NCBI GenBank assembly: GCA_033471095.1
Contig: CP136752.1
Span: forward strand, 1,220,217 to 1,236,585
DNA: 16,369 bases
Direction of reading: 5' to 3'
Source: Candidatus Nitrosoabyssus spongiisocia
GTDB taxonomy: Archaea; Thermoproteota; Nitrososphaeria; Nitrososphaerales; Nitrosopumilaceae
Part shown: piece after piece, positions 1,982 through 16,277 of the stretch
Numbering within the stretch: the stretch's first letter is position 1
Layout: each line of letters begins with the position of its first letter
Translations under genes and position numbers: made by a program
Notes under the pieces: model-generated
The model's database searches: none
The model's input: the letters and a program-made list of their open reading frames with translations, nothing else
What the model was told of the DNA's origin: nothing

Positions 1982-3073
1982 ATGTTGAATAAATTAAAAT
2001 TTGGAATCCAAAATGGGTTAAATGTAGCCAGAGCTGGATATTCTATTGATCAAATACTTACTGCGTGTATGTTGGCAGACAAAACTGGTTATGATTCTAT
2101 TTTTTACATGGATCATACAAACGTACCACAATGGAAAAACGCAACTGTACTTGATCCCTGGGTTATGTTATCTGCAATTGCCGCAGTTACACAAAATGTT
2201 GAACTTGGAACATGTGTGACAGATGCCATTCGTCGTCACCCATCAAACATATCTCTTGCAGCAATTACCCTTGATCGTGTCTCCAAGGGACGAGCTATAC
2301 TTGGTATAGGTGCAGGAGAAGCACAAAACCTAAAAGAATTTTGCATACCTTTTGAAACACCTGTAAGTAAATGGGAAGAGCAAATTCAAGTTATTAAAAA
2401 ATTATACACATCAAACCCAGATAATGTGGTAGATTTTGATGGAAAATATTATCAACTAAAAGGAGCTTGTCTGCAAGCTGCCCCTATTCGTAAACCATAT
2501 CCACCAATATACATGGCAGCTGGAGGTTCGCGAACATTGAGATTAACTGGTAAATATGGTAATGGTTGGCTTCCAATTGGATATACCCCAGAGTTGTTTG
2601 AAGATCACGCAAATAAGATTAAAGAGTCAATGGATTCAAACAATCGATCTCAGGAGGAAAAGGATAATTTCCAATATGCTCTTGACATTGATGTTTATTT
2701 TTCCGAAGATGCCGAAGAGTCTTGGGCAAAGATGAAAGAGGCAATAAAAGTAAGCCTTTTCAAACCCGAAGTATTACGTGTACATAATCTTAAAGAAATT
2801 CAAGGTTTTGATTTCAAAAAATACTTTACAGAATACTCTATGTCAAATCAAGAGTGGATTGTAAAGATGCGAGAGGCTGCCACCACAATTCCAGATAATA
2901 TAGCACGTTCATCTATCGGAGTCGGTACGGTTGACGATATAATACCCGTATTTGAGAAATTCATGAACAAAGGCGTAAATCACTTTGTTATTAGATTTTG
3001 GGGCAAGAATTATTTTGGCAGTATTGATAAATTTGCCAGTAGCGTAATGCCACGTTTAAAAGAACTTGTCTAA
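1982..3073 (+). CDS. Luciferase-like monooxygenase (LLM) family, probable F420-dependent oxidoreductase
   Basis: 363 aa. It has an LLM-type TIM-barrel pattern: KFGIQ...GYDSIFYMDH, ...RAILGIGAGEAQNLKEFCIPFE...WEEQIQVIKKLY, ...PPIYMAAGGSRTLRLTGKYGNGWLP. Cofactor and substrate are not determinable from sequence. Confidence 0.8.
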   Translation: MLNKLKFGIQNGLNVARAGYSIDQILTACMLADKTGYDSIFYMDHTNVPQWKNATVLDPWVMLSAIAAVTQNVELGTCVTDAIRRHPSNISLAAITLDRVSKGRAILGIGAGEAQNLKEFCIPFETPVSKWEEQIQVIKKLYTSNPDNVVDFDGKYYQLKGACLQAAPIRKPYPPIYMAAGGSRTLRLTGKYGNGWLPIGYTPELFEDHANKIKESMDSNNRSQEEKDNFQYALDIDVYFSEDAEESWAKMKEAIKVSLFKPEVLRVHNLKEIQGFDFKKYFTEYSMSNQEWIVKMREAATTIPDNIARSSIGVGTVDDIIPVFEKFMNKGVNHFVIRFWGKNYFGSIDKFASSVMPRLKELV

Positions 3074-3103
3074 TTTTTAATTATTTTAATAATACTAAAG
3101 TTA

Positions 3104-3133
3104 GGTTCTGTTGCAACTTTGGGTGTTACTCAT
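3104..3133 (+). repeat. Copy 1 of a ~30-nt dispersed motif (subtype 1): ggttctgttgcaactttgggtgttactcat
   Basis: Matches copy 3 at 24/25 of the first 25 nt, and the reverse complement of copy 4 at 22/25. It lies 30 nt after the LLM gene stop. Its function is unknown. Confidence 0.75.
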
Positions 3134-3172
3134 AAATCAATGAATTATAATTGTTATTATAAAAACAGTAAA

Positions 3173-3367
3173 TTATACCACAAATGTGTTCACAAATTGT
3201 AACGAATCAATAATGTATTTCCTTGTTAATGGCAGTCCTGATACAATCTTAGAATTATATTTTTTGCTTTTCATAACACTGCAACAGTTAGGCACACTAG
3301 GGGACTCGCTCAGATGCCCATTTACGATTTTATACAAATCTCTTGCGTGTATTTCTATTTGTGACAC
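3173..3367 (-). CDS. Hypothetical small protein (64 aa, GTG start)
   Basis: ORF only. Its composition looks more protein-like than the overlapping plus-strand ORF 3186-3407. I recognised no family. Confidence 0.25.
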   Translation of the reverse strand: MSQIEIHARDLYKIVNGHLSESPSVPNCCSVMKSKKYNSKIVSGLPLTRKYIIDSLQFVNTFVV

Positions 3368-3408
3368 TCCGTTCTGCCTAGCGTCATTCGTTCATAATAT
3401 TCGATAAA

Positions 3409-3928
3409 TTGTCAAACTTTAAAATTATTGGTATATCAATTATGGCCATCATCATAAGTTTGGGATTTGTGGCTTTGACCACACTATCTATTTCAAATAT
3501 TCCCAGTATTAATGAATATGTTGGTCTTTATGACAAAAGTGTCGAATTATTAAACAAGATGAAAGAAGTACAGAAACTAAACAATGAATTGATACAGTTA
3601 GAATCTTACGCAAATGCTGCAACCTTAGAACGTGATAAACTTTGAGACAGTTCAATAAGATATATGCTGAAATCACCACAGAGTATAATGAAGAGTATAT
3701 AGTCTATTAAACACTCTTTTGACAAGATACTCTACAAATGATCAATGGGATCGTTATGATGAAATTTTACAGTATATGACCGTATTAGAAAATAATTATT
3801 TAAAAGATACCAATGCTCATAATGCTCATTTGAGTAATTATTTTGATGATCTTTTAACATAACGTTCAACATATAATAACAAATACGGTGATTTGGCAAA
3901 TAAGATATCTGATATTATTGACAAGTAG
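3409..3928 (+). pseudogene. Fragmented gene for an N-terminally anchored coiled-coil protein
   Basis: ORF 3409-3645 encodes a TM helix (IIGISIMAIIISLGFVALTTL) plus a coiled-coil-like segment. Coding-like sequence resumes in another frame (STNDQWDRYDEILQYMTVLENNYLKDTNAHNAHLSNYFDDLLT, from 3731). An in-frame TAA at 3860-3862 interrupts it, and it continues RSTYNNKYGDLANKISDIIDK to the TAG at 3926-3928. Confidence 0.35.
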
Positions 3929-3988
3929 TGAATAAAATGTATTTGAGATTCTTTTTTATACACTGGATAAAAACGGAGACAAAATAAC

Positions 3989-4180
3989 ATGGATGTTTTA
4001 TTGATTGTATATCTCACGATTAATATTTTGATTGCGTATATCAATCAAGCAGATCTATCTTTTACACATTATCTTGGCAGATATGGATTTTATATTCTTC
4101 TAGCAGGATTATTAATTTATGGTTCATATATGTTGATTACAAGAAATAGTGATAAATCCAAGAAGAATCAAAAGAAATAA
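3989..4180 (+). CDS. Hypothetical small membrane protein (63 aa)
   Basis: Two hydrophobic segments (VLLIVYLTINILIAYI and FYILLAGLLIYGSYMLI) and a Lys-rich tail. ORF evidence only. Confidence 0.4.
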   Translation: MDVLLIVYLTINILIAYINQADLSFTHYLGRYGFYILLAGLLIYGSYMLITRNSDKSKKNQKK

Positions 4181-4209
4181 AATTAAAATAGAGATTATAG
4201 TATCGCTCC

Positions 4210-4239
4210 ATGAATAGCACCCGAATTTGCAATAGAGCC
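4210..4239 (-). repeat. Copy 2 of the ~30-nt motif (subtype 2, inverted); reverse complement ggctctattgcaaattcgggtgctattcat
   Basis: Matches the reverse complement of copy 4 at 23/25 core positions. It lies 30 nt after the stop of ORF 3989-4180. Confidence 0.75.
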
Positions 4240-4462
4240 TTTACTATGATTATTAACAATTAACTCATTGCCACTAGTACCAAGTTTATTTGGTGTGGAT
4301 TTTACAGATATGTCACATAAATAGTCGGCAAATATCTCAGATTGAGTTTTTAAATTAATAGTATCAGATTCGTCATATTGCATATATCAAATATTTAATT
4401 TTTTTCCATCACATCATTGTGGTCAAAATTAGATTTGAGTGAAATGATTTTATGTAAAGAAT

Positions 4463-5383
4463 TTAAGATACGAGTTTGACAGATTTAATTTTTTTATGTA
4501 GATAAACAAATGCCAATGTTGGTAGACCAACATAAATTAGCAAGTTGATAGCAATTACAAGTAATCCCAAAGCCAACACACTATTCTCCGAGTCATCTAC
4601 CATCGTCATTATAGATACACTAGAGAGTAGAGGATATAGAATAGTCTGAATTATTTCACGCAGTAGAGGGTTTTCACGCTCAGCATCTGCAATTACAGGT
4701 GAAAAGGTGTAATAGATTTGGTTGAATGATGTTATGAAGGATATTCCAGGTAGACTAGTCATTAAAGTTGTATCACGTATCTCTCTGAGCATTTGTACTT
4801 GTTGTGAAAGCTCAGTTCCATATACTGCTGTTGCGATTAGACAACCACCTTTACCAGGAGAAGTGGTAGTAGAGTTATCATCCTTTATGGTTTTATCATC
4901 CTTTATGGTTTTATCATCCTTTATGGTTTTATCATCCTTTATGGTTTTATCGTCCATCATAATATCATCATCCTTTATGGTTTTATCGTCCATCATAATA
5001 TCATCATCCTTTATGGTTTTATCATCCTTTATGGTATTATCGTCCATTATGGTACCGGTAGATGTAACAGGTAATGTAGAATCAAAAGTGATGGAACCGG
5101 TGGGTTGAGAAATATCTACTAATTTTTGTTCACTTGTAAAGAAAGTATTAGAGTATACGCTAGCCTTTACAAATACAAAGCGTTCATCAGAAGACACTAG
5201 ACCCAAATAGACGACTCTATCAGAGTAGGGCTGTGTTAGGGAGAGTTGAGTTTTAATTACTCCTAGTTTGGAACTACTAATAGTAACAAAAGCATCATCA
5301 GATGATGGGCTAGCAATAATTTCAACTAGTTTTTTATCATCAGCTGACTTCCCAAGATACTTTGTGAATAATAGCCTCTGCAA
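4463..5383 (-). CDS. CFI-box-CTERM-type membrane-anchor protein with an acidic (DDKTIK)n linker
   Basis: C-terminal block GGCLIATAVYGTELSQQVQMLREIRDTTLM...FNQIYYTFSPVIADAERENPLLREII. It is followed by hydrophobic segments (VLALGLLVIAINLLIYVGLPTLAFVYL) and a basic tail. This matches my memory of the CFIATAAYGS...VQ.LR.FRD CFI-box C-terminal domain. There is no signal peptide. The called TTG start sits directly after a stop codon and overlaps the upstream ORF by 44 nt. Confidence 0.7.
   Translation of the reverse strand: MQRLLFTKYLGKSADDKKLVEIIASPSSDDAFVTISSSKLGVIKTQLSLTQPYSDRVVYLGLVSSDERFVFVKASVYSNTFFTSEQKLVDISQPTGSITFDSTLPVTSTGTIMDDNTIKDDKTIKDDDIMMDDKTIKDDDIMMDDKTIKDDKTIKDDKTIKDDKTIKDDNSTTTSPGKGGCLIATAVYGTELSQQVQMLREIRDTTLMTSLPGISFITSFNQIYYTFSPVIADAERENPLLREIIQTILYPLLSSVSIMTMVDDSENSVLALGLLVIAINLLIYVGLPTLAFVYLHKKIKSVKLVS
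4878..5057 (-). repeat. Ten tandem 18-nt units (tcatcctttatggtttta, variant tcgtccatcataatatca) encoding DDKTIK / DDDIMM
   Basis: Counted directly. Four perfect units run from 4878 to 4949. Interleaved variants follow to 5057. The array is in frame (6 aa per unit). Confidence 0.9.
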
Positions 5384-8300
5384 TTATTGGGGCTTGACCA
5401 CCAGTGAATATACGACCTGCGCCGCCGCCTCCTGAGCTACTGCCATCACCACTACTAGTAAATGGAATAGGTGCAGGTACTTGAGTACTAGTGGCACCGG
5501 TGGAAGATGTTAGAGCATAGGTGGATAGGTGAGTGGTGTAAATTGTTACATGAGTGTTGTCATCTACAAAACATTCGTTTGTGGAAGTAGTGGTTAAAAG
5601 AGTATTAATTTCTGCGATATTACTAGTACCACAGGATGACATCTGGGTTGGTGTAGAGCCAATAGTATTTACATAATATGCATTATAATTATTTCCACCT
5701 TGATTTTCAAATACAATAGATACAACTGTATCACCTAGGTTGAGATCAATTGTTACATCTCCCAAAGTTATAGCTGTAATCGTTACATGACTAGTAGTAG
5801 TCTGACCTGCAGTTGTAGATGGTACAGTAATAGTAGCAGTACGTGGTGCAAGGAATTGCGAATCCCAAGTACCATCATGAGTAATAATAGTACTAGTAGG
5901 TATCATGACTGTAATGTCATTAGTAGATACAAGTTTGGCAGTTAATCCTGCAGTGATATTAGTAGTGTTTAAAGTAGTAGCGATATAATTGATAGTAACA
6001 TTTTGATGTTCAGGTGTAACAATTAATGGTACGTCTATATGAAGAAGTGTAGGAGACACCATCTGATCGCTTGATGTAACGTTACTTTGGACGTTTAAGC
6101 TATTTTCTGTATTAAATATACCATTATTTACAGCGTCTAAAACAGAATCTGTAGGAAAATGTACATTAGCTCCAGAACTATGTTGTAGATTTGTGTTAAC
6201 CACATGTTCAGATATATTGTTACTAAAAGTAAAAACCAAAGTAGGATTGTTTGTAGAATCAACATTAGTAGTAGTGAATGCTCCTGAAGTTATACCCAAT
6301 CGTGATGAATTAGGTATGATTACATTTTCACTAAATGTAACAGTTAGAGTATGTGCTAAAGTGTCATATATTGGAGTATTAACGACTGTTGGTCGTATAG
6401 TGTCACGAACAACTATAATTCTATTTACTTGAACGGCATTATTTCCTGCCGAATCAACAGAGTTGTATGTGATGGTGTAATTGCCTACAGTATCTGTATC
6501 TACAGTGTCACCACCAATGACGATAGGAGAGTCATCATCAGTAGTGGCGTTTTGCTCATTATATGTGGAGTTTATGTTTAGTGTTATGGTACTACTGCCA
6601 TTCAGTGTGATTACTGGGGGAATAGTGTCACTAACAACTATAGTTCTATTCACTTGGGTGGCATTATTTCCTGCTGAATCAACAGAGTCATAGGTGACGG
6701 TATAATTTCCCACGAGAGATGAATTTACAGTGTCACCACCAATGACGATAGGAGAGTCATCATCAGTAGTGGCGTTTTGCTCATTATATGTAGAGTTTAT
6801 GTTTAGTGTTATGGTACTATTACCATTCAGTGTGATTACTGGGGGAATAGTGTCACTAACAATTACAAGCCTATTCACTTGGGTGGCATTATTTCCTGCT
6901 GAATCAACAGAGTCATAGGTGACGGTATAATTTCCCACGAGAGATGAATTTACAGTGTCACCACTAATTGTTACTGGAGAGTTATCATCAGTAGTGGCGT
7001 TTTGCTCATTATATGTAGCGCCAACAAATAGTGTTATGGTACTATTGCCATTCAGTGTGATTACTGGGGGAATAGTGTCACTAACAATTACAAGCCTATT
7101 CACTTGGGTGGCATTATTTCCTGCTGAATCAACAGAGTCATAGGTGACGGTATAATTTCCCACGAGAGATGAATTTACAGTGTCACCACCAATTGTTACT
7201 GGAGAGCCATCATCAGTAGTGGCGTTTTGCTCAGAGTAGGATGAGCCAAGTTCTACATAAACAGTAGCATTACCAATTAGTGTGATTACTGGGGGAGTAT
7301 CATCTGGTGCATCAGAAATTATTACAGTTCTATCAACTTGGGTGGCATTATTTCCTGCTGAATCAACAGAGTTGTATGTGACGGTATAATTTCCCTTGAG
7401 AGATGAATTTACAGTGTCACCACCAATTGTTACTGGAGAGTTATCATCAGTAGTGGCGTTTTGCTCATTATATGTAGAGCCAACAAATAGTGTTATGGTA
7501 CTATTGCCATTCAGTGTGATTACTGGGGGAATAGTGTCACTAACAATTACAAGCCTATTCACTTGGGTGGCATTATTTCCTGCTGAATCAACAGAGTCAT
7601 AGGTGACGGTATAATTTCCCACGAGAGATGAATTTACAGTGTCACCACCAATTGTTACTGGAGAGCCATCATCAGTAGTGGCGTTTTGCTCAGAGTAGGA
7701 TGAGCCAAGTTCTACATAAACGACATTATTACCATTCAGTGTGATTACTGGGGGAGTAGTATCTGAAATGTTGTTAATTACAGGTTGATTCACAAAGTTT
7801 TCTAGTGTTATGTCAGTATTTTGAGTAGAGTTTATTCCACCACTAGTTTTAGTATATGAGATAATTATGGTTTCATTTGCCAAGAGATTTCTGCTTAAAT
7901 TCAGAGTAATTGAAGAGGAGTTTGATGTTATACTATCTATTGTAGCAGATGTTCCATTAAGAGCAAAGTCGGTTATAGTGGCCGAGTAAGTAATGTTTTC
8001 ATTAAAAGTAATTATAATGTTATCACCTTGTGTATTGGTAATAGCAGAAGTTATCACTACACTTCTATCTTCAGGTGTAGATATAGTAAAGAAAGTAGAA
8101 GGAGAGTTTTGATTTGCATACTCTGTTGCAATCCAGTCTGCAGAGCGAGCAGTAGATGATAGTCGGAATTCATCTAATTTGCCATTAAAGAATTGATTAA
8201 ATACCCAATTGATTTTTCCAATATAGTTTGTTGTTCTATTCACATCATTAGATGTATGCACAGCACCACTAGTAATTGAGGTACCATTGTGATAAATAGT

Positions 8301-8582
8301 TGCTGTACCTGATGATTCATGTACAACTGTAAAGTATGCCCATTGACCTTTCTGCAAAACACCACTAATTGTGACATTCTGAGATACGTTACCTCTTAGC
8401 ATATCATATGTCAAATCCGTGTTAGCATAAGGGGAATAATCCAATATAGGGCTTTGAAATACAATATTGTCTTGTGCCAGACCATTGCCAAAATCAACGA
8501 ATCTAGCAAAACCTCTATTGCCACCAATATTTGCCCATACCGAGATGGTAAAGTCTGTATTGTAGAATAGACTACCTGCCAA
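5340..8582 (-). CDS. Large surface protein segment: LamG (concanavalin-like) domain + Ig-like repeat + 6x DUF5011/HYR-like Ig repeats + Thr/Ser/Asn-rich beta-rich C-terminal half
   Basis: LamG motifs: FTISVWAN, GQWAYFTVVHESSGTATIYHNG, FNGKLDEFRLSSTARSADWIATEYANQ. Six 75-78 aa repeats follow the pattern PPVITLNG..Y.EQNATTDD.SPVTIGGDTVNSS.VGNYTVTYDSVDSAGNNATQV. N-x-S/T sequons are very dense. The called TTG start is mid-domain, and the frame stays open upstream to 8759. No signal peptide or anchor is present. Confidence 0.8.
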   Translation of the reverse strand: MAGSLFYNTDFTISVWANIGGNRGFARFVDFGNGLAQDNIVFQSPILDYSPYANTDLTYDMLRGNVSQNVTISGVLQKGQWAYFTVVHESSGTATIYHNGTSITSGAVHTSNDVNRTTNYIGKINWVFNQFFNGKLDEFRLSSTARSADWIATEYANQNSPSTFFTISTPEDRSVVITSAITNTQGDNIIITFNENITYSATITDFALNGTSATIDSITSNSSSITLNLSRNLLANETIIISYTKTSGGINSTQNTDITLENFVNQPVINNISDTTPPVITLNGNNVVYVELGSSYSEQNATTDDGSPVTIGGDTVNSSLVGNYTVTYDSVDSAGNNATQVNRLVIVSDTIPPVITLNGNSTITLFVGSTYNEQNATTDDNSPVTIGGDTVNSSLKGNYTVTYNSVDSAGNNATQVDRTVIISDAPDDTPPVITLIGNATVYVELGSSYSEQNATTDDGSPVTIGGDTVNSSLVGNYTVTYDSVDSAGNNATQVNRLVIVSDTIPPVITLNGNSTITLFVGATYNEQNATTDDNSPVTISGDTVNSSLVGNYTVTYDSVDSAGNNATQVNRLVIVSDTIPPVITLNGNSTITLNINSTYNEQNATTDDDSPIVIGGDTVNSSLVGNYTVTYDSVDSAGNNATQVNRTIVVSDTIPPVITLNGSSTITLNINSTYNEQNATTDDDSPIVIGGDTVDTDTVGNYTITYNSVDSAGNNAVQVNRIIVVRDTIRPTVVNTPIYDTLAHTLTVTFSENVIIPNSSRLGITSGAFTTTNVDSTNNPTLVFTFSNNISEHVVNTNLQHSSGANVHFPTDSVLDAVNNGIFNTENSLNVQSNVTSSDQMVSPTLLHIDVPLIVTPEHQNVTINYIATTLNTTNITAGLTAKLVSTNDITVMIPTSTIITHDGTWDSQFLAPRTATITVPSTTAGQTTTSHVTITAITLGDVTIDLNLGDTVVSIVFENQGGNNYNAYYVNTIGSTPTQMSSCGTSNIAEINTLLTTTSTNECFVDDNTHVTIYTTHLSTYALTSSTGATSTQVPAPIPFTSSGDGSSSGGGGAGRIFTGGQAPIIAEAIIHKVSWEVS
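6408..7766 (-). repeat. Six tandem coding repeats, period 225 nt (one of 234), DUF5011-like Ig domains
   Basis: The copies fall into subtypes a,b,a,b,c,c. Subtype a reads VYVELGSSYSEQ..DDGSP. Subtype b reads ITLFVG.TYNEQ..DDNSP. Subtype c reads ITLNINSTYNEQ..DDDSPIVIGG. This indicates a higher-order duplication. Confidence 0.9.
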
Positions 8583-8759
8583 GTCTGGAAGATCAAGATA
8601 ATTTACGTAGTCTGGGTATAATCCATAAAAGTTTAATCCATTACCAATTTGTGCAGATACTGAATTATTAGGGCTAAAGGCAAAACGGTTTGGAGTCTGT
8701 GGTGTTGCATGACAATCATTCCCTGATGAGTCTAGGGTAGAGTTTGCAGTAAAAGTGGA
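8583..8759 (-). other. 177-nt nominally intergenic stretch that is stop-free, in frame with both neighbouring ORFs, and encodes the N-terminal strands of the downstream LamG domain
   Basis: My translation: STFTANSTLDSSGNDCHATPQTPNRFAFSPNNSVSAQIGNGLNFYGLYPDYVNYLDLPDL. It runs straight into (L)AGSLFYNTDFTISVW. There is no ATG, GTG or TTG within these 59 codons. Confidence 0.65.
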
Positions 8760-11162
8760 TTAATCCATGTGATAAATTATTTCATAGTCTGAATCCCAAA
8801 CATTATCATGTATAATAGTTGCCGCTAATGAGACATTATAATACATGTAGAGTATGGTATCACTGGTATTGCTCAAAGTAGGTAGACGAACCCAAGCTAC
8901 TAGAGTACCGGTAGTAGCATTATTAGTAAATGACTCAATTTCATGCTGTAATATAGTAAATCCATCACTGCTAGTGAAAATAATATCGGCTCCGTTAGGC
9001 AGAACAGCTGAATTGTTCAAAGCAGAATCAGAGATACTTACTAGAAGGGTAAAGTTTTGAAGAGTTGTAGTTATTTGGTTACTGTTAATAGTAATTTTCT
9101 GTCTAGTATCCCACAAGGAAGGTAAATCAAAAAATTGAACATTATTAGTGATTGGTTGATTTGTAAAGTTTGCAAGTGATAAATCATTCACGTTTGTAAT
9201 ATTACTAGTTGTTTGATTATATGATACTGTTAATGGCAATACAGGTGGAATGTTAGAGTCTAGTGTTAGATTGATGGCAGTGTCATTATGTCTAGTTATA
9301 CTAGTTGTAGCAATACCTGAAATACTTACTGCAAAGTCAGTTGGAGAAGTGGTATTGGTAAGAGTGACTACTTTATCAAAGTTGACAGTTATGTTGTCAC
9401 CTCGCTGGTTTGTGTAAGCGTTAACAAAGATTGGAGGTGGTAGAACATTATTAGTGATTGGTTGATTTGTAAAGTTTGCAAGTGATAAATTATTTACGTT
9501 TGTAATACTACTAGTTGTTTGATTATATGATACTGTTAATGGTAATACAGGTGGAATGTTAGAGTCTAGTGTTAGATTGATGGCAGTGTCATTATGTCTA
9601 GTTATACTAGTTGTAGCAATACCTGAAATACTTACTGCAAAGTCAGTTGGAGAAGTGGTATTGGTAAGAGTGACTACTTTATCAAAGTTGACAGTTATGT
9701 TGTCACCTCGCTGGTTTGTGTAAGCGTTAACAAAGATTGGGGGTGGTAGAACATTATTAGTGATTGGTTGATTTGTAAAGTTTGCAAGTGATAAATTATT
9801 TACGTTTGTAATACTACTAGTTGTTTGATTATATGATACTGTTAATGGTAATACAGGTGGAATGTTAGAGTCTAGTGTTAGATTGATGGCAGTGTCATTA
9901 TGTCTAGTTATACTAGTTGTAGCAATACCTGAAATATTTACTGCAAAGTCAGTTAGAGAAGTGGTATTGGTAAGAGTGACTACTTTATCAAAGTTGACAG
10001 TTATGTTGTCACCTCGCTGGTTTGTGTAAGCGTTAACAAAGATTGGAGGTGGTAGAACATTATTAGTGATTGGTTGATTTGTAAAGTTTGCAAGTGATAA
10101 ATTATTTACGTTTGTAATACTACTAGTTGTTTGATTATATGATACTGTTAATGGTAATACAGGTGGAATGTTAGAGTCTAGTGTTAGATTGATGGCAGTG
10201 TCATTATGTCTAGTTATACTAGTTGTAGCAATACCTAAAATATTTACTGCAAAGTCAGTTGGAGAAGCGGTATTGGTAAGAGTGACTACTTTATCAAAGT
10301 TGACAGTAATATTGTCACCTTGCTGGTTTGTATAAGCACTAACAAAAATTGGAGGTGGTAGAACATTATTAGTGATTGGTTGATTCACAAAGTTTTCTAG
10401 TGTTATGTCTGTATTTTGAGTAGAGTTTATTCCACCACTAGTTTTAGTATATGAGATAGTGATGATTTCATTTGCCAAGAGATTTCCTCTTAAATTCAGA
10501 GTAATTGAAGAGGAGTTTGATGTTATACTATCTATTGTAGCAGATGTACCAGTAAGAGTAAAGTCAGTAGTAGGAATAACCGAATAGATAATGTTTTCAC
10601 TAAAAGTAATTATAATGTTATCACCTTGTGTGTTGGTAATAGCAAAAGTTATCGCTACACTTCTATCTTCAGGTGCAGATATAGTAAAGAAAGTAGAAGG
10701 AGAGTTTTGATTTGCATACTCTGTTGCAATCCAGTCTGCAGAGCGAGCAGTAGATGATAGTCGGAATTCATCGAATTTGCCATCAAAGTAGGAATCAGTT
10801 CCCCAATTGGATCTTCCGATATAGTTTGATGCTCTATTCACATCAAGAGATGTATGTACGGTATCACTAGTAATTGAGGCGCCATTTTTGTAGATAGTTG
10901 CTGTACCTGATGATTCATGTACAACTGTAAAGTGTGCCCATTGACCTGTCTGCAAAACGCCTCTAACTGCGATACCCAGAGAGTAGGCACCCTGTAGCAT
11001 ATTATATCTTAAACCATGGATAAGTTCATAGTAAGCAAATAGAATATTGTCTTGTCTCTCACCATTGCCAAAATCAACGATTCTAGCCTGACTTTTAATG
11101 GCATCAATATTTGCCCATGCCGAGATGGTAAAGTCTGTATTGTGGAATAGACTACCTTCCAA
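8760..11162 (-). CDS. Large surface protein segment: LamG domain + Ig-like repeat + 4x 102-aa Ig-like (SwmB/Big_5-like) repeats + C-terminal DUF2341 domain
   Basis: The LamG region is similar to that of the downstream ORF. DUF2341-like block: LWDTRQKITINSNQITTTLQNFTLLVSISD...NGADIIFTSSDGFTILQHEIESF...LVAWVRLPTLSNTSDTILYMYYN...VWDSDYEIIYHMD-stop. The called TTG start is mid-LamG, and the frame is open upstream to 11339. No signal peptide is present. Confidence 0.8.
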   Translation of the reverse strand: MEGSLFHNTDFTISAWANIDAIKSQARIVDFGNGERQDNILFAYYELIHGLRYNMLQGAYSLGIAVRGVLQTGQWAHFTVVHESSGTATIYKNGASITSDTVHTSLDVNRASNYIGRSNWGTDSYFDGKFDEFRLSSTARSADWIATEYANQNSPSTFFTISAPEDRSVAITFAITNTQGDNIIITFSENIIYSVIPTTDFTLTGTSATIDSITSNSSSITLNLRGNLLANEIITISYTKTSGGINSTQNTDITLENFVNQPITNNVLPPPIFVSAYTNQQGDNITVNFDKVVTLTNTASPTDFAVNILGIATTSITRHNDTAINLTLDSNIPPVLPLTVSYNQTTSSITNVNNLSLANFTNQPITNNVLPPPIFVNAYTNQRGDNITVNFDKVVTLTNTTSLTDFAVNISGIATTSITRHNDTAINLTLDSNIPPVLPLTVSYNQTTSSITNVNNLSLANFTNQPITNNVLPPPIFVNAYTNQRGDNITVNFDKVVTLTNTTSPTDFAVSISGIATTSITRHNDTAINLTLDSNIPPVLPLTVSYNQTTSSITNVNNLSLANFTNQPITNNVLPPPIFVNAYTNQRGDNITVNFDKVVTLTNTTSPTDFAVSISGIATTSITRHNDTAINLTLDSNIPPVLPLTVSYNQTTSNITNVNDLSLANFTNQPITNNVQFFDLPSLWDTRQKITINSNQITTTLQNFTLLVSISDSALNNSAVLPNGADIIFTSSDGFTILQHEIESFTNNATTGTLVAWVRLPTLSNTSDTILYMYYNVSLAATIIHDNVWDSDYEIIYHMD
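9137..10360 (-). repeat. Four tandem near-identical coding repeats, period 306 nt (102 aa)
   Basis: The landmark gaacattattagtgattggttgat recurs at 9137, 9443, 9749, 10055 and 10361. Unit: NQPITNNVLPPPIFVNAYTNQRGDNITVNFDKVVTLTNTTSPTDFAVSISGIATTSITRHNDTAINLTLDSNIPPVLPLTVSYNQTTSSITNVNNLSLANFT. Confidence 0.9.
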
Positions 11163-11339
11163 GTCTGGAAGATCAAGATAATCTCCGTTGTTGTTGTCTA
11201 CTCCATCAAAGTTTAGTCCATTACCAATTTGTGCAGATACTAAATCATTAGATTCAAAGGGAGTAGAGCCTGTAGATAGTGGTGTTGCATGACAATCATT
11301 CCCTGATGAGTCTAGGGTAGAGTTTGCAGTAAAAGTGGA
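11163..11339 (-). other. Second 177-nt stop-free in-frame stretch encoding LamG N-terminal strands
   Basis: My translation: STFTANSTLDSSGNDCHATPLSTGSTPFESNDLVSAQIGNGLNFDGVDNNNGDYLDLPDL, then (L)EGSLFHNTDFTISAW. It has the same length and frame as 8583-8759. The ends are identical, and the centre is diverged but still open. Confidence 0.65.
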
Positions 11340-12748
11340 TTAATCCATGTGATAAATTATTTCATAGTCTGAATCCCAAACATTATCATGTATAATAGTT
11401 GCCGCTAATGAGACATTATAATACATGTAGAGTATGGTATCACTGGTATTGCTCAAAGTAGGTAGACGAACCCAAGCTACTAGAGTACCGGTAGTAGCAT
11501 TATTAGTAAATGACTCAATTTCATGCTGTAATATAGTAAATCCATCACTGCTAGTGAAAATAATATCATCTCCGTTAGGCAGAACAGACTGAATTGTTCA
11601 AAGCAGAATCAGAGATACTTACTAGAAGGGTAAAGTTTTGAAGAGTTGTAGTTATTTGGTTACTGTTAATAGTAATTTTCTGTCTAGTATCCCACAAGGA
11701 AGGTAAATCAAAAAATTGAACATTATTAGTGATTGGTTGATTTGTAAAGTTTGCAAGTGATAAATCATTCACGTTTGTAATATTACTAGTTGTTTGATTA
11801 TATGATAGTGTTAATGGTAATGCAGGTAGAATGTTAGAGTCTAGTGTTAGATTGATTGCAGTGTCATTATGTCTAGTAATACTAGTTGTGGCAATACCTA
11901 AAATATTTACTGCAAAGTCAGTTGGAGAAGTGGTATTGGTAAGAGTGATTTCTCTATCAAAGTTGACAATTATGCTGTCACCTCGCTGGTTTGTATAGGC
12001 GTTAACAAAGATTGGATATGATGGAACATTATTAGTGATTGGTTGATTTGTAAAGTTTGCAAGTGATAAAGTAGGATCTACACTATCAGTGATATTTGTG
12101 CCTGTATCGTTGTATGATAAAAGTGGAGAGTCGTCAAAAGATAGGGTAGAGTTTAGTGAAAGAATTATAGAAGTTGCATTATTACTAGTTATACTATTCA
12201 CAGAAGTGGATGAATTAATTATAGCAAAGTCGCTAAGGAATGTAGTACTACCTACTGTAATATTTTTAGAAAATACAACAATAATATTGCTACCAGTTGT
12301 ATCAGTATACACTCTACTAGGAGGATTCAGAGCTGACATTATTTGTTACACTAGAAATATTAATGGAACCAGAAGGGTGACCATCAATTCTTATCAGAGT
12401 CTGAATAGATGTATAAGATAGACTAAGACTAGTAGTAGGAGTTATGGGCGGAGATACAACTATGGCGATAGTATTAGCGTCAACATTATAAAAATCAGTT
12501 ATGTTATAGTTGGCAGGATTAAACACAAAAGATGAATTTAAATTAGTCCGAGTAGCTAAATCCGTGTATGTGATATTGGAACGAATCGGCACAGATATAG
12601 TTATCGTATCACCATCAGTATTAGTAGATGCATTTATAGGTGCATATTGTCCAAAAGCAGAATCTAGTGGAAAGAGCAAAGTGGCAGAGAGAACGATAAT
12701 AGCAGTTAAAGAGAGAGTCATCACATATGAATGATAGACATTATGCAA
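11340..12748 (-). pseudogene. First module of the surface-protein locus (signal peptide + Ig-like repeats + DUF2341), disrupted by two frameshifts
   Basis: Signal-peptide-like start MTLSLTAIIVLSATLLFPLDSAFGQ; the ATG at 12721 is likelier than the TTG at 12748. The frame changes near 12325-12345 (...ISSVTNNV | NPPSRVYTDTTGSNIIVVF). It changes again at an extra A at 11588: agaacagActgaattg versus agaacagctgaattg in the paralog at 9001-9015. After that, the DUF2341 sequence continues open in the locus frame to the TAA at 11340-11342. Confidence 0.65.
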
Positions 12749-12793
12749 TATTTATCAAAAATAATAAAATGATTTATAATTGTTTGTTTGATG

Positions 12794-12823
12794 GGTTCTG
12801 TTGCAGCTTTGGGTGTTATACAC
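12794..12823 (+). repeat. Copy 3 of the ~30-nt motif (subtype 1): ggttctgttgcagctttgggtgttatacac
   Basis: One mismatch to copy 1 in the 25-nt core. It lies 45-75 nt upstream (on the minus strand) of the surface-protein locus start. Confidence 0.75.
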
Positions 12824-12863
12824 ATAACTTCTTTTTTGAACTTTAATAAAAAATTTATAATTT

Positions 12864-13500
12864 CTAAAAATTAACTGCACTTTTACCAAGTGCTGGTTTA
12901 CGCAGTTCATCTCGTTTACGCATCTTTTCTATTTTCTCAGATTTACGTATTCGTTTTATTTCTCCTTGTTTAGAATCATCCACATATAGACTATTTATCA
13001 GTTTTTTAAAATTTTTTCTACTTTGGCTTTAGTAGGAAATTCAGCCTCCATTTGACATTATATACTCTGACTAGGTAAACATCCAAAATTATTCTCATTC
13101 AGAATTTTAATTAAAAAACTATACACTGTCGATTCAGGATATCTAATTCTAACCAAAGCGGTATAACCATTCTTGAAATTATCACCTATGATTTTTGTAC
13201 CACCATACACAAAAGAGGCGACATTATTTTCCTTGATGAAATTATTCGAATATATATTAAATTGTTTGTAGTAGTTGAAAAATAATCTCTTGAATATATC
13301 ACACCCTTTTTTGTAGAAAAAAATAGTCGTTCTGCATACACTACTACTCCTTTGTATCTGAATTTCAATACTGCCTCCAAGTTAGAATTCACAGCCCTAT
13401 ACATCAAAGAATAGAATTCATGAATCATCATTTTCCTGTTTACTTTTTGTATTAGATCTAGTTTCACTGTAATTTTCATATGTAAGTGGACCAATTCCAT
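12864..13500 (-). pseudogene. Decayed gene for a ~210-aa protein with a C-terminal HTH-like segment
   Basis: ORF 13186-13500 continues in another frame as CDIFKRLFFNYYKQFNIYSNNFIKENNVASFVYGGTKIIGDNFKNGYTALVRIRYPESTVYSFLIKILNENNFGCLPSQSI-stop. The frame switch is plausible at the T6/A7 homopolymers (13307-13323). GYTALVRIRYPESTVYSFL resembles resolvase/IS-type HTH motifs. Further fragments follow stops and a shift: QMEAEFPTKAKVEKILKN and NSLYVDDSKQGEIKRIRKSEKIEKMRKRDELRKPALGKSAVNF. Confidence 0.45.
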
Positions 13501-13602
13501 CTCCTCTCTATTCCATTATGTTCCATTCGATTTACCCTCAAAGTCTGTTTTGATTTATGATGAAAGCGTTTTTGATTATATCTAGTAATTCACCTAAGCA
13601 TT

Positions 13603-13824
13603 ATGCAAATAATCGAAAGTGTAAATATTAAATTATTCCAGGGAGGATATATTTCAAATATGAATAATGATGGAAGATGTGTAATAATTAATCATACTGA
13701 TATTGTAAGTGCTACTGTGATTAACCATTTGCAAGTTTTTGAATCTTATACAGGTAAAGGACTTGTGTATGTGTGTGTAAAAATCACACAATTCGAAGAG
13801 CAGATTGCAAGCATATACAATTAG
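13603..13824 (+). CDS. Hypothetical protein (73 aa)
   Basis: ORF only. I recognised no family. Confidence 0.25.
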   Translation: MQIIESVNIKLFQGGYISNMNNDGRCVIINHTDIVSATVINHLQVFESYTGKGLVYVCVKITQFEEQIASIYN

Positions 13825-13886
13825 TCAAATGTATAGTGATTACAAATAGAGGATATACGAATAATAATTTTAGAATAATGGAATAG

Positions 13887-14739
13887 ACTAGACTGAATCT
13901 GTGTAAATACTGTAATTCAGGTAATATCAAAAAGGATGGTATGAGGAACAGCAAACAAGGAAAAATACAACGATTCAAATGTTTAGATTATAATAAACGC
14001 TTTACATCAAATTTTGAATTTGAGGGTAAACAATCTGATTCAAAAATAATTACAGGTGCATTACAAATGTATTATTCAGGTATGTCAGTTGGAGATATTT
14101 CAACACATTATGAGTTTGATACTGATGTGAATCGTTCTACTATGAATCGCTGGATTGCCAAATACCCTGTAATGTTAACTAGATACCTAGATGAAATCAT
14201 ACCACGTGTTGGCAATTGGATTCGTGCTGATAAAGTATGAATAAAGATGTCAGGTAAACCAAAATATCTATTTGCACCTATGAATAATGACACTCGTTTT
14301 GGTTTAGTTAAAGACATGGCCGATACTAAATTTCAGCACAATGCAGATTATTTGTTGAAACTGACTAAATTGACTACTGGGAATAAAACACCCAAGCATT
14401 TTATCACAGATGGATTACCATCATAGGGTAAATCGTCAAGAAGAGTATTTGGCAGAGAAACACAATATGATAAAAATATACACTTGAAAGGTGAGATGAA
14501 TAACAATATGATGGAACGTCTAAATGGTGAGATTCGTGATTGTAGGAAAGTGTTTAGAGGATTGAAGAGAAGATAGTCTGATTATTAATGGTGTGACAGT
14601 GTATTACAATTGTGCCAAAAAGTATAGTGGTATTGACAATAAGAGACCATCTAAGAGAGCAAAGATAACTGTCAAGGGTCGTAACAAGTGGAATACTTTG
14701 ATACAGAGTGCAAGTTTGCATGATTATGATACTATCTAA
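13887..14739 (+). pseudogene. Degraded DDE transposase (IS remnant; archaeal zinc-ribbon + DDE type, IS6/IS240-like by motif; family uncertain)
   Basis: Open from 13887 with no start codon: CKYCNSGNIKKDG...GKIQRFKCLDYNKRF, where the second zinc pair reads C-x2-Y. WIRADKV-TGA-IKMSGKPKYLFA sits where ADE.W.K.kGk.yLfa is expected (stop at 14238-14240). ITDGLPS-TAG-GKSSRRVFG sits where DGL.sY is expected. NNNMMERLNGEIRDCRKVFRGLKRR is followed by a stop and frameshift near 14570. The tail reads IINGVTVYYNCAKKYSGIDNKRPSKRAKITVKGRNKWNTLIQSA to the TAA at 14737-14739. Confidence 0.7.
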
Positions 14740-15525
14740 TTTTTGGGGCAAAATTTTCAATTAAACCTTTCATTGCATTATGACATTTCTTCATATCCTT
14801 GTTAATAGAGTCAGACTCTAATTGCTCAATATTGCATTCACTACATTTATCAGCATTCATATGGATTTTGTCATGTTTGCCACATAATTTTCCATTTGAT
14901 TCTAACGTTGGATCTAATCTAACGAGTCATTCAACATTAAACATACTCAAATAATGAAACATTGTACTGTGATTTATAATAAGATCAGCAAGGTGCACTT
15001 TATCAGATATGTCCTAAAATTAATTCATCGCTCATTGGTCTTATCCCAATTAGGATAAAAACATAATAATTTCAATTTGTTAAAATTGTCAGTATAGACA
15101 TTTAATTGCTTGAATATATCCTCATACTGTGATGACACCTGTTCATTGTAGGTTATATCAGTATCTTTCAATCCCTCAGTTGCCTGCTCATATTTATCAC
15201 GAGATAAAGTTTACTATTTTATAATAATAGATTGGTAAAGTATCCTGCTTTCTTGTGATGATTAAGAAAATGTTTCATCCAGTAATCTTTTGTAATATCT
15301 TTTTTCTCAAAATGGAAATTACATAATGTGCACATTAGATGATTATTCATGGGATAAACATGTTAATGAAATTGCTGACTGATATTCAAATTTATCACAT
15401 AGTATGTCACTATGATTCATTAAAGATTTTGCATATTTTGCACTATATCTAACACTATTCCATATATTTTTATGAGAAATATGGATTTTAGAATCATCGG
15501 ACACGATTATTTTTAAATAATTCAT
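14732..15525 (-). pseudogene. Heavily decayed gene of unknown family (fragments in three frames)
   Basis: Fragments, in order:
- MNYLKIIVSDDSKIHISHKNIWNSVRYSAKYAKSLMNHSDILCDKFEYQSAISLTCLSHE-stop
- NNHLMCTLCNFHFEKKDITKDYWMKHFLNHHKKAGYFTNLLL-stop
- SRDKYEQATEGLKDTDITYNEQVSSQYEDIFKQLNVYTDNFNKLKLLCFYPNWDKTNER-stop
- DISDKVHLADLIINHSTMFHYLSMFNVE-stop-LVRLDPTLESNGKLCGKHDKIHMNADKCSECNIEQLESDSINKDMKKCHNAMKGLIENFAPKIR-stop
A HEPN/AbiV-like reading is only a faint impression. Confidence 0.4.
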
Positions 15526-15571
15526 ATATTTAGATCGGTAATGATGTTTTTAGTATTAAATTATTAGAACC

Positions 15572-15601
15572 ATTAATAACACCCGAATTTGCAATAGAAC
15601 C
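15572..15601 (-). repeat. Copy 4 of the ~30-nt motif (subtype 2, inverted); reverse complement ggttctattgcaaattcgggtgttattaat
   Basis: It differs from the copy 1 core only at the three subtype positions (7, 14, 17). It lies 43 nt upstream of the ATG at 15645 and is followed immediately by c + TAAAGT. Confidence 0.75.
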
Positions 15602-15644
15602 CTAAAGTAGAATATTTTTTAATGTGTATTTATAATGATAATTT

Positions 15645-16277
15645 ATGCAACATGTTGGAAAATTAAAAATTAAATCTATGGATAAAATTAGAGAGTTTCT
15701 AAATGAGGAACACGTCGGTAGAATTGCAAGTATTGATGATAAAGGATATCCACAGATAATACCTATGAATTTTGTTTATCTGCATGATTGTATCTATATG
15801 CATTCATATCATAGAGGTGAGAAATTAGAGAACATATTACAATGCTCAAAGGTGGGTTTTGAGGTAGATAGAGAATTAGAGTTTCTTCCATCATACTTTA
15901 AAAATCCACACGACGCGTCTCTTGCTGATACTCTATACATTAGTGTGGTGATTAAAGGTAATGGAGAATTGGTAGCGGATATGAAAGAAAAGACAGTTGC
16001 GTTAAACGGATTGATGGCAAAATATCAACCAGAAGGCAGGTATGATTTGGTGAATAGTGATGATAAAGTAGTTGATGCTGTAGCAGTGATAAAGATTATT
16101 CCTGATATAATTACTGGGAAATATAATATTGGACAAAATTTATCACAAAAAGATAGATTAATTCTTGCAGAGAATATACTTGAGCGTAACTCTACTACTG
16201 CAAAAAACACATTGCAAATAATGGGATTTGATGTAGTTGCCGATACATTGAAGATGAATAATATCTCTGAATGGTAA
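15645..16277 (+). CDS. Pyridoxamine 5'-phosphate oxidase-like (split-barrel) FMN-binding family protein
   Basis: The N-terminal pattern REFLNEEHVGRIASIDDKGYPQIIPMNFVYLHDCIYMHS...GEKLENI is typical of the PNPOx-like / Pyridox_ox_2 family. Met-12 (15678) is an alternative start. Confidence 0.75.
   Translation: MQHVGKLKIKSMDKIREFLNEEHVGRIASIDDKGYPQIIPMNFVYLHDCIYMHSYHRGEKLENILQCSKVGFEVDRELEFLPSYFKNPHDASLADTLYISVVIKGNGELVADMKEKTVALNGLMAKYQPEGRYDLVNSDDKVVDAVAVIKIIPDIITGKYNIGQNLSQKDRLILAENILERNSTTAKNTLQIMGFDVVADTLKMNNISEW

Follow-up and report, generated by a model that had tools for sequence, protein, structure and literature searches.

Is a giant surface-protein gene that appears as five separate open reading frames (ORFs) truly in pieces, or was it broken by the way in which the genome was sequenced? 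The question is raised by a stretch of 16,369 nucleotides (nt) of the archaeon Candidatus Nitrosoabyssus spongiisocia, an ammonia oxidiser of the Nitrosopumilaceae which lives as a symbiont of sponges (contig CP136752.1, positions 1,220,217 to 1,236,585 of the forward strand), called the window in the following. An initial annotation, made from the sequence alone, described five co-oriented ORFs at 4463-12748 which read like a single protein of ~2,700 amino acids (aa), and proposed either a decaying giant gene or a modular locus using recoding, reinitiation or recombination. That the five ORFs are one gene for a cell-surface protein of ~2,750 residues is strongly supported by our analysis. The gene itself is most likely intact and falsely split by nanopore consensus errors at methylation motifs, a reading which we favour because every break sits on a GATC or AGCT motif in an assembly made from Oxford Nanopore (ONT) data only.

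One gene read as five open reading frames

The ORF listing and a three-frame translation place the five ORFs on the minus strand at 12748-12317, 12339-11575, 11162-8760, 8582-5340 and 5383-4463. The translation bears out that three ORFs share one frame: the minus-strand frame with coordinate modulo 3 equal to 2 is open from 11597 to 5340 but for two TAA codons (11342-11340 and 8762-8760). The open stretches of 859 and 1,139 codons, set against a random expectation of ~7% stop codons per codon, cannot be due to chance, and the 178-nt "intergenic" gaps after each TAA are in-frame coding sequence of a LamG domain. Read from the ATG at 12721 to the stop codon at 4465-4463, the minus strand (whole gene 4463..12721) encodes one protein interrupted by three extra bases and two TAA codons. 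If the three bases are deleted and the two TAA codons read as CAA, the repaired product is 2,751 aa long. It is 98% identical over aa 1-2037 to three of the alleles described below (L002, L006 and L007), and in nearly all windows of 300 nt there is an allele with which the repaired gene shares 99-100% identity. Only in the repaired or intact gene do an N-terminal signal peptide and a CFI-box stand on one polypeptide.

A putative TATA-like A/T-rich element, GATAAATATT, lies ~30-40 nt upstream of the start codon (minus strand, 12722-12790); no other sequence obviously resembles a promoter for the 8.3-kb gene.

The gene in related strains

An exact-product look-up with the luciferase-like gene (window 1982-3073) gave ten syntenic loci in the European Nucleotide Archive (ENA) metagenome assembly ERZ20067936, the contigs of which have hifiasm-style names. 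A second look-up via the pyridoxamine-5'-phosphate-oxidase-family (PNPOx) gene gave ten more loci and three further contigs, so that 20 related loci were available altogether. Their flanks are 99.1-99.7% identical to the window, and by this identity they are taken as strains of the same species.

At 14 syntenic loci on 13 contigs the gene is in each case single and uninterrupted, with products of 2,021-2,823 aa, and all 14 agree in the stop, the signal peptide and the CFI-box tail. The initial annotation had named separate genes with the same boundaries in relatives as a pattern that would speak against a single protein; the 14 uninterrupted genes are the opposite of this pattern and, together with the 2,751-aa product of the five-base repair, they support the single protein that it had proposed. 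None of the 14 loci has the extra bases (12335, 11588 and 5346) or the TAA codons found in the window, at ~99% identity around each site, and at each break a single base separates the window from all of them.

The alleles differ from each other in the number of DUF2341-LamG modules (1-2) and of DUF5011 repeats (5-15) and in a variable linker, which gives 10 gene lengths among the 14 loci while the flanks are ~99.5% identical. Repeat-mediated recombination alters module numbers between co-occurring strains. The architecture of the window (two modules, six DUF5011 repeats) exactly equals that of no related strain. In the unique C-terminal block the ratio of nonsynonymous to synonymous changes (dN/dS) between allele classes is ~0.7-1.0, calculated from small counts. 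A homologue search with the full repaired protein found none but distant matches driven by the repeats, and one with a 273-aa unique segment across the 5346 junction found one 155-aa fragment; no short-read (Logan) contig over a break was recovered.

Some further observations concern the related loci themselves. The alleles L006 and L007 (2,669 and 2,670 aa) are both on ena:ERZ20067936:ptg000012l (2,129,313-2,150,404 and 593,707-614,798), so that the locus is present twice, ~1.536 Mb apart, on a 2.15-Mb contig. Because this spacing is close to the genome size of ~1.46 Mb, the contig probably runs ~1.4 times round the circular genome while switching strains. In L001 and L004 a stretch of 9 aa within the signal peptide is duplicated in tandem (MILSLTAIMVLSLTAIMVLSATLL..., locus ~18,540-18,592), and the allele classes also differ in their signal peptides (MTLSLTAIIV vs MILSLTAIMV).

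The five breaks

The breaks were placed by comparison with the intact alleles, and all those listed by the initial annotation were recovered, two of them now with a single base assigned. The frameshift that it had near 12325-12345 is one extra base at 12335 (G on the plus strand, AGCT^AC to AGCTGAC), which none of the 20 related loci has; it puts the ORFs 12748-12317 and 12339-11575 into different frames. Its extra A at 11588 was exact; on the plus strand the base falls within an AGCT site (CAG^CTG to CAGACTG), and neither the paralogous copy at ~9007 nor any related locus has it. Its TAA codons at 11340 and 8760 are both present and both CAA>TAA. The former (11340..11342, minus strand) replaces a CAA (Gln) found in all relatives by C>T at the C of a GATC; it stands in the linker between DUF2341 and LamG (...IIYHMD(Q)STFTANSTLDSSGND...), which is continuous (..YHMDQSTFTANSTLDSSGND..) in every intact allele. 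The latter (8760..8762, minus strand) repeats this change at the corresponding GATC of the second copy of an internal duplication. The frame change within the overlap 5340-5383, finally, is an extra base at 5346 (plus-strand G, AGCT^AC to AGCTGAC). The insertions at 12335 and 5346 are thus the identical change in the identical hexamer context, and GT^AGCT>GTCAGCT occurs twice among the three.

The duplicated segment (102-aa repeat, DUF2341, LamG and SWM unit) covers 7771..12017 on the minus strand with a period of ~2,580 nt, and the tract 11790-11278 differs from 9210-8698 only by the base inserted at 11588 and, ~20 nt downstream, by two neighbouring substitutions. Because both TAA codons are at the same position of this 2,580-nt duplication they are not independent events, and they should not be counted as independent evidence. 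In L006 and L009 both copies of the linker are likewise identical, with CAA.

The three shift sites read AAT GTC AGC TCT, TTC AGT CTG TTC and GAA GTC AGC TGA. No known slippery motif was found at them; no search for RNA structure was made. Exact-product look-ups of the broken ORFs (306, 254, 134 and 800 aa) gave no record in any other assembly, and a look-up of the PNPOx variant of the window likewise gave no independent one. The peptides which span the junctions of the repaired protein are SSVTNNVALNPPSR, YHMDQSTFTANSTLD, NNVALNPPSR, YHMDQSTFTANSTLDSSGNDR and VSWEVADDKK.

Private variants and short palindromic motifs

Alignment to the closest alleles followed by a 21-mer scan against the 20 related loci left 25 point variants that are private to the window. 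Eleven of these change an outer base of GATC by G>A or C>T: the two that create the TAA codons (8762 and 11342) and nine that break nothing, GATC>GATT or AATC, at 3467, 4006, 8438, 8714, 9125, 11294, 11706, 14541 and 15903. Five more affect AGCT, namely the insertions at 12335, 11588 and 5346 and substitutions at 8988 and 14308, and one, at 2932, is GTCGAC>GTTGAC. Sites of these three motifs hold 17 of the 25 private variants and all five disrupting changes; the other eight variants are at no such motif and are confined to the giant gene. Beyond the ends of the gene every private variant (6/6) is C>T or G>A at a GATC, AGCT or GTCGAC palindrome. The affected motif sites are invariant in the 20 related loci, and three GATC>AATC changes within the internal duplication are found in both paralogous copies.

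This distribution is far from random. In an earlier count 10 of 22 variants were on the G or C positions of GATC, which are 0.44% of positions (binomial p = 1.5e-18), and each insertion has a chance of ~1% of touching AGCT, which all three do. Among the private variants that the related loci themselves have in the left flank, none is at GATC.

Two of the variants fall in genes that flank the giant gene. The GATC>AATC at 15903 changes GAT to AAT (D>N) in the conserved PNPOx gene (15645-16277). The PNPOx version of the window is found on one National Center for Biotechnology Information (NCBI) contig of 1,455,463 bp only, that of the metagenome-assembled genome (MAG) to which the window belongs, and an alternative 210-aa version on 18 contigs. 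The change probably belongs to the same class of error as the breaks, and its fit to the methylation-error signature would explain why the version is known from the MAG contig alone. The C>T at 2932 is synonymous (GTC>GTT) in the gene for a luciferase-like/LLM oxidoreductase, and it may mark a third modified motif in the archaeon.

Probable nanopore consensus errors at methylated sites

The proteins flanking the window match exactly WOV92848.1 and WOV92860.1 of the MAG AB1(1). According to the accessible part of its description, the libraries were made by native-barcoding ligation and sequenced on PromethION R10.4 with kit 112, and the data were processed with Guppy 6.1.5 in high-accuracy (HAC) mode, Flye --nano-raw --meta and Medaka; neither short-read sequencing or polishing nor whole-genome amplification is mentioned in that part of the methods (PMC11525543). 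Both motifs are methylated elsewhere in the family: AGCT (N4-methylcytosine, m4C) and GATC (N6-methyladenine, m6A) in Nitrosoarchaeum sp. BD3, Ca. Nitrosomarinus catalina and Thaumarchaeota MY3; in N. catalina methylation reaches >99% of the sites (PMC11033074). In native R10.4.1 data modified sites show C2T/G2A errors that are strand-specific and enriched at GATC, the G and C bases of which are called less accurately; the errors persist into assemblies (PMC11610603). Modification-mediated mismatches can amount to thousands per Medaka-polished ONT-only genome (PMC10687267).

The events would then be as follows. The organism would methylate AGCT (m4C) and GATC (m6A) as other Nitrosopumilaceae do, and in an assembly from native DNA the basecaller and the consensus step would err systematically at the methylated sites. 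C>T or G>A at the outer bases of GATC would give both TAA codons, and single-base insertions at AGCT the three frameshifts. Where a gene is hypervariable and internally repeated, a mixture of strains probably makes consensus errors locally more frequent, which may explain the enrichment there. The window resembles the cases treated with Hammerhead and Modpolish (PMC11610603, PMC10687267) in being ONT-only native DNA with errors confined to short conserved motifs, with C2T/G2A at GATC and with errors that survive polishing by Medaka, and the logic of Modpolish, a site 100% conserved in relatives and discordant in the ONT genome (PMC10687267), is the one used here. It differs in that these papers deal with mismatches, while the window has three insertions at an m4C-type motif for which we infer the same cause. 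Furthermore, its chemistry and basecaller (R10.4 kit 112, Guppy 6.1.5 HAC) are earlier than those benchmarked in PMC11610603 and PMC10687267.

Other genes of the MAG may give a related picture. In the expression table in supplementary file 2 of PMC11525543, Nspongiisocia_00100-00170 include runs of adjacent genes with best matches to DUF5011/DUF2341 proteins, all at similar expression. This hints that other giant surface-protein genes of MAG AB1(1) are fragmented likewise.

Several points weigh against consensus errors as the cause. The errors are deduced and not seen in reads, the extension to insertions at m4C sites is an extrapolation from papers on mismatches, and that the reference contigs are PacBio HiFi is deduced solely from their hifiasm-style names. 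Only some sites are affected, 11 of the 35 GATC sites and 5 of ~25 AGCT sites. No local context that predicts which GATC or AGCT sites are altered was found; the same context, acatgGATCa, is intact at 2111 and altered at 8762. The left flank has three conserved genes, in which 0/10 GATC and 0/9 AGCT sites are altered (0/19 vs 14/34 elsewhere, Fisher p = 0.0008, computed before the PNPOx site was added, the inclusion of which weakens the contrast). Such sparing would also be expected from purifying selection on real mutations. Finally, the eight private variants outside motifs, all inside the gene, indicate that its allele differs somewhat from the sampled ones.

Alternative explanations

The alternative which survives best is that the gene is a real pseudogene in strain AB1(1), inactivated by three insertions of one base each and by a nonsense mutation (CAA>TAA) which gene conversion copied to the second module. 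This is the decaying gene of the initial annotation; it is possible, though unlikely, and it is not the best explanation of breaks which all fall on GATC/AGCT motifs in an ONT-only assembly. Decay is conceivable for surface proteins of a host-restricted symbiont, and the breaks are truly in the deposited sequence. The dN/dS of 0.7-1.0 in the unique C-terminal block, from small counts, suggests weak constraint, the eight ordinary private variants are all within the gene, and the absence of motif-linked changes from conserved genes (0/19) against 14/34 in the giant gene and intergenic DNA is what a filter by selection would leave. The two modules are nearly identical over 513 nt, from which it is seen that conversion occurs here. 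Conversion could by itself be the source of both TAA codons, but it need not be invoked if identical context leads to identical error. The decay would, however, require C>T hypermutation at GATC >100-fold above background, for which deamination gives no rationale since the methylated base of GATC is an adenine (m6A), and it would require that insertions hit AGCT three times out of three, twice with the identical product GTCAGCT. Neutral decay predicts private variants spread over all types of site, and 17/25 are on motifs. The left flank of the sampled sister strains has no GATC decay, while the same signature alters the neighbouring conserved PNPOx gene non-synonymously. The changes are restricted to the one genome which was made by an error-prone method, and this method is one known to yield such a signature. 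A related candidate, a deamination hot spot due to cytosine methylation at GATC, was rejected as main cause, since the GATC mark in the family is m6A and relatives show no GATC decay in the left flank.

It is improbable, more so than ordinary decay, that the disruption is real and targeted to the motifs, in that a modification or restriction machinery for AGCT/GATC would mutate the palindromes (C>T at GATC, +1 at AGCT) at >100 times background. If this were true, the giant surface protein would be switched off or phase-varied in this strain and intact in co-resident strains.

A consensus artefact of another kind, in which Flye and Medaka merged strains of differing repeat number and misaligned the pile-ups with no role for methylation, is very improbable by itself. 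Strain diversity is high, with at least 13 strain-level contigs and 10 gene lengths in one related sample, and the repeat architecture of the window (2 modules, 6 DUF5011) exactly matches none of them. The 2.58-kb internal duplication holds nine of the motif-linked variants, and errors are enriched in variable regions. What a mixture leaves unexplained is the placement on GATC/AGCT, the near-exclusive C>T/G>A and the sites in unique sequence (12335, 5346, 3467, 4006, 14308, 14541 and 15903). It is best seen as a factor contributing to the methylation-linked errors rather than as an alternative to them.

The recoding, reinitiation or modular locus of the initial annotation, a functional locus with +1 frameshifting at GUC-A-GCU, TAA read-through, TTG reinitiation or five subunits, can practically be dismissed: the heptamer GTCAGCT is common to 2/3 of the shifts and the ORFs all point the same way and have one signal peptide and one anchor between them, but shifts and stops are found in 0/14 orthologous loci where conservation would be expected of a programmed signal, the internal ORFs have no signal peptides and so could not be exported alone, the 178-nt gaps encode LamG in frame, and there is no known +1 slippery motif.

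Domains and repeats of the protein

Domains were identified by searches with Pfam and NCBIfam profiles, repeats with Tandem Repeats Finder (TRF) and membrane segments by a Kyte-Doolittle hydropathy scan; all features given here are on the minus strand. The order of domains proposed initially was confirmed by the profiles, and so was the placing of the only signal peptide at the 12748 end and of the only membrane anchor at the 4463 end, as hydrophobic segments of the repaired protein are found only at aa 1-24 and aa 2689-2741 and the latter adjoin a CFI_box_CTERM match. The predicted signal peptide MTLSLTAIIVLSATLLFPLDSAFG|Q (12647..12721) has n-, h- and c-regions with A at -3 and G at -1 (AFG|Q); its hydrophobic segment (aa 1-24, Kyte-Doolittle 2.05) is the sole one at the N-terminus and is present in all alleles.

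The first DUF2341 (11400..11576; PF10102, 31.5 bits, E = 2.5e-7, cut-off 23.4) is followed by a Laminin_G_3 domain of the ConA-like lectin/LamG type (10725..11192; PF13385, 88.4 bits, E = 7e-25, cut-off 27.6) and an Ig-like SWM_repeat (10437..10649; PF13753, 58.3 bits). The second copies of DUF2341 (8820..8996; 27.0 bits, cut-off 23.4) and Laminin_G_3 (8127..8603; 66.6 bits, cut-off 27.6) are followed by an equivalent SWM unit at ~7771-8080, seen in the alignment of the duplication. In the DUF2341-LamG module both profiles thus exceed the gathering score, adjacent and in one reading frame. Between the modules four tandem repeats of 102 aa (9137..10385; TRF 306 nt x 4.1) are 95-98% identical to each other, and a fifth unit of the family is found at 11718-12017. 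The initial annotation of these as four Ig repeats of 102 aa holds for the tandem arrangement and for homology to the SWM_repeat segment (BLASTP 36% identity, E = 2e-10); a significant Pfam match of their own was not obtained.

The second module is followed by six tandem DUF5011/Bact_surface_Ig-like repeats (6397..7760; PF16403, 230 bits in six stretches; TRF 225 nt x 6), which also score 77.7 bits to NF033932 (LapB-repeat). Then comes a Thr/Asn-rich region with a Gly-rich end, SSGGGGAG (5400..6396), the sequence of which is kept in all alleles and which has no Pfam or NCBIfam match. An acidic (DDKTIK)n spacer (4875..5053; TRF 18 nt x 9.9) contains an 18-nt stretch which is missing in the four closest alleles. 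The CFI-box-CTERM domain (GGCLIATAVYGTE..., 4628..4843; NF041770, 71.2 bits vs cut-off 40, E = 4.7e-20) covers profile positions 1-68 of 69 and residues 181-252 of the last 306 aa. It leads into two hydrophobic segments (4496..4654; aa 2689-2707 and ~2713-2741) and a basic tail, HKKIKSVKLVS. Asn, Thr and Ser are 36% of the composition, and the high density of N-x-S/T sequons noted initially was substantiated, with 109 in the repaired protein against 71.6 +/- 6.9 in shuffles.

Function and known relatives

As judged from these features the protein would be exported by the Sec pathway and heavily N-glycosylated. The CFI-box and transmembrane tail would retain it in the membrane, with the acidic (DDKTIK)n as a stalk, and the two ConA-like lectin modules would be displayed outward on Ig-like spacers. 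The features suggest an adhesin-like role in the binding of a ligand or of host matrix.

The gene belongs to known kinds, as a CFI-box-CTERM anchored protein and as a DUF2341-LamG/DUF5011 repeat array. With the CFI-box-CTERM proteins (NF041770) of Nitrosopumilaceae it shares the C-terminal block of 72 aa, which in the present protein is followed by hydrophobic helices at the very C-terminus. A search of contigs with the CFI-box ORF found no genome at species level and only relatives with 41-48% identity in this block, in five other Nitrosopumilaceae MAGs, and in the three of them with listed ORFs (L011, L013 and L015) the block is at the C-terminus of the ORF. These relatives are small ORFs (268-796 aa), whereas here the anchor bears a repeat array of ~2,750 aa. 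We know of no experiment on the role of the CFI-box in sorting, cleavage or lipid attachment.

DUF2341 and LamG/ConA-like domains are found in one polypeptide in a 4,328-aa DUF2341 domain-containing protein (Heimdallarchaeota MAG, P0022) and in the RHS/YD-repeat proteins P0021 and P0027, and PF10102 and PF13385 occur together in more than half of 30 matches. A stop in the linker between the two is anomalous because both domains co-occur in single giant proteins in many lineages. It should be noted that the likeness to the giant proteins with DUF2341 and Laminin_G_3 is distant (just 28-36% identity over 11-16% of the query), and the other DUF2341/LamG matches have RHS toxin or other modules added, with no CFI-box anchor seen in them. 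The bacterial DUF5011/LapB-repeat adhesins (PF16403, NF033932) have the logic of a tandem-repeat stalk in common with the present protein, which has six units of ~75 aa; unlike these, it has an archaeal host and a C-terminal transmembrane/CFI-box module. The anchoring systems described for large bacterial adhesins are of other kinds than such a module.

The surroundings of the gene

On both sides of the giant gene are AT-rich stretches (27-31% GC) at 3100-4460 and 12760-15640, in which the ORFs are of 46-147 aa only and have no Pfam match. One of them, a 104-aa ORF at 13186-13500, has a paralogue elsewhere in the MAG (WOV92815.1 and WOV92855.1). In non-coding DNA (14472-14504) there is a 31-nt indel polymorphism; the window and some related contigs have the stretch, while L001, L004 and L010 lack it. 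Rfam and tRNA scans of the window gave no matches. A second length-polymorphic gene is found nearby: next to uvrB, at ~5-6.5 kb upstream of where the window starts, a DUF7482 gene encodes 470-528 aa among the strains (L001-L010, locus ~1,250-2,844).

Implications

The first consequence concerns the quality of annotation, as one gene of 8.3 kb is read as five ORFs and the PNPOx protein is also altered (D>N). If the 17 motif-linked errors found in 16 kb are typical of the MAG, its 1.46 Mb would hold of the order of a thousand or more such sites. Errors of this kind could inflate the count of pseudogenes and mislead inferences on genome reduction and strain divergence in the 'simplest sponge holobiont'.

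The pattern of errors also indicates, indirectly, that this uncultured archaeon methylates AGCT and GATC as its free-living relatives do, and possibly GTCGAC. Beyond the errors, the locus is fixed: a giant lectin/Ig-repeat protein anchored by a CFI-box, whose length ranges from 2,021 to 2,823 aa. Because this length varies among co-occurring strains which are otherwise ~99.5% identical, the giant surface locus is a candidate determinant of interaction with the host or with phages.

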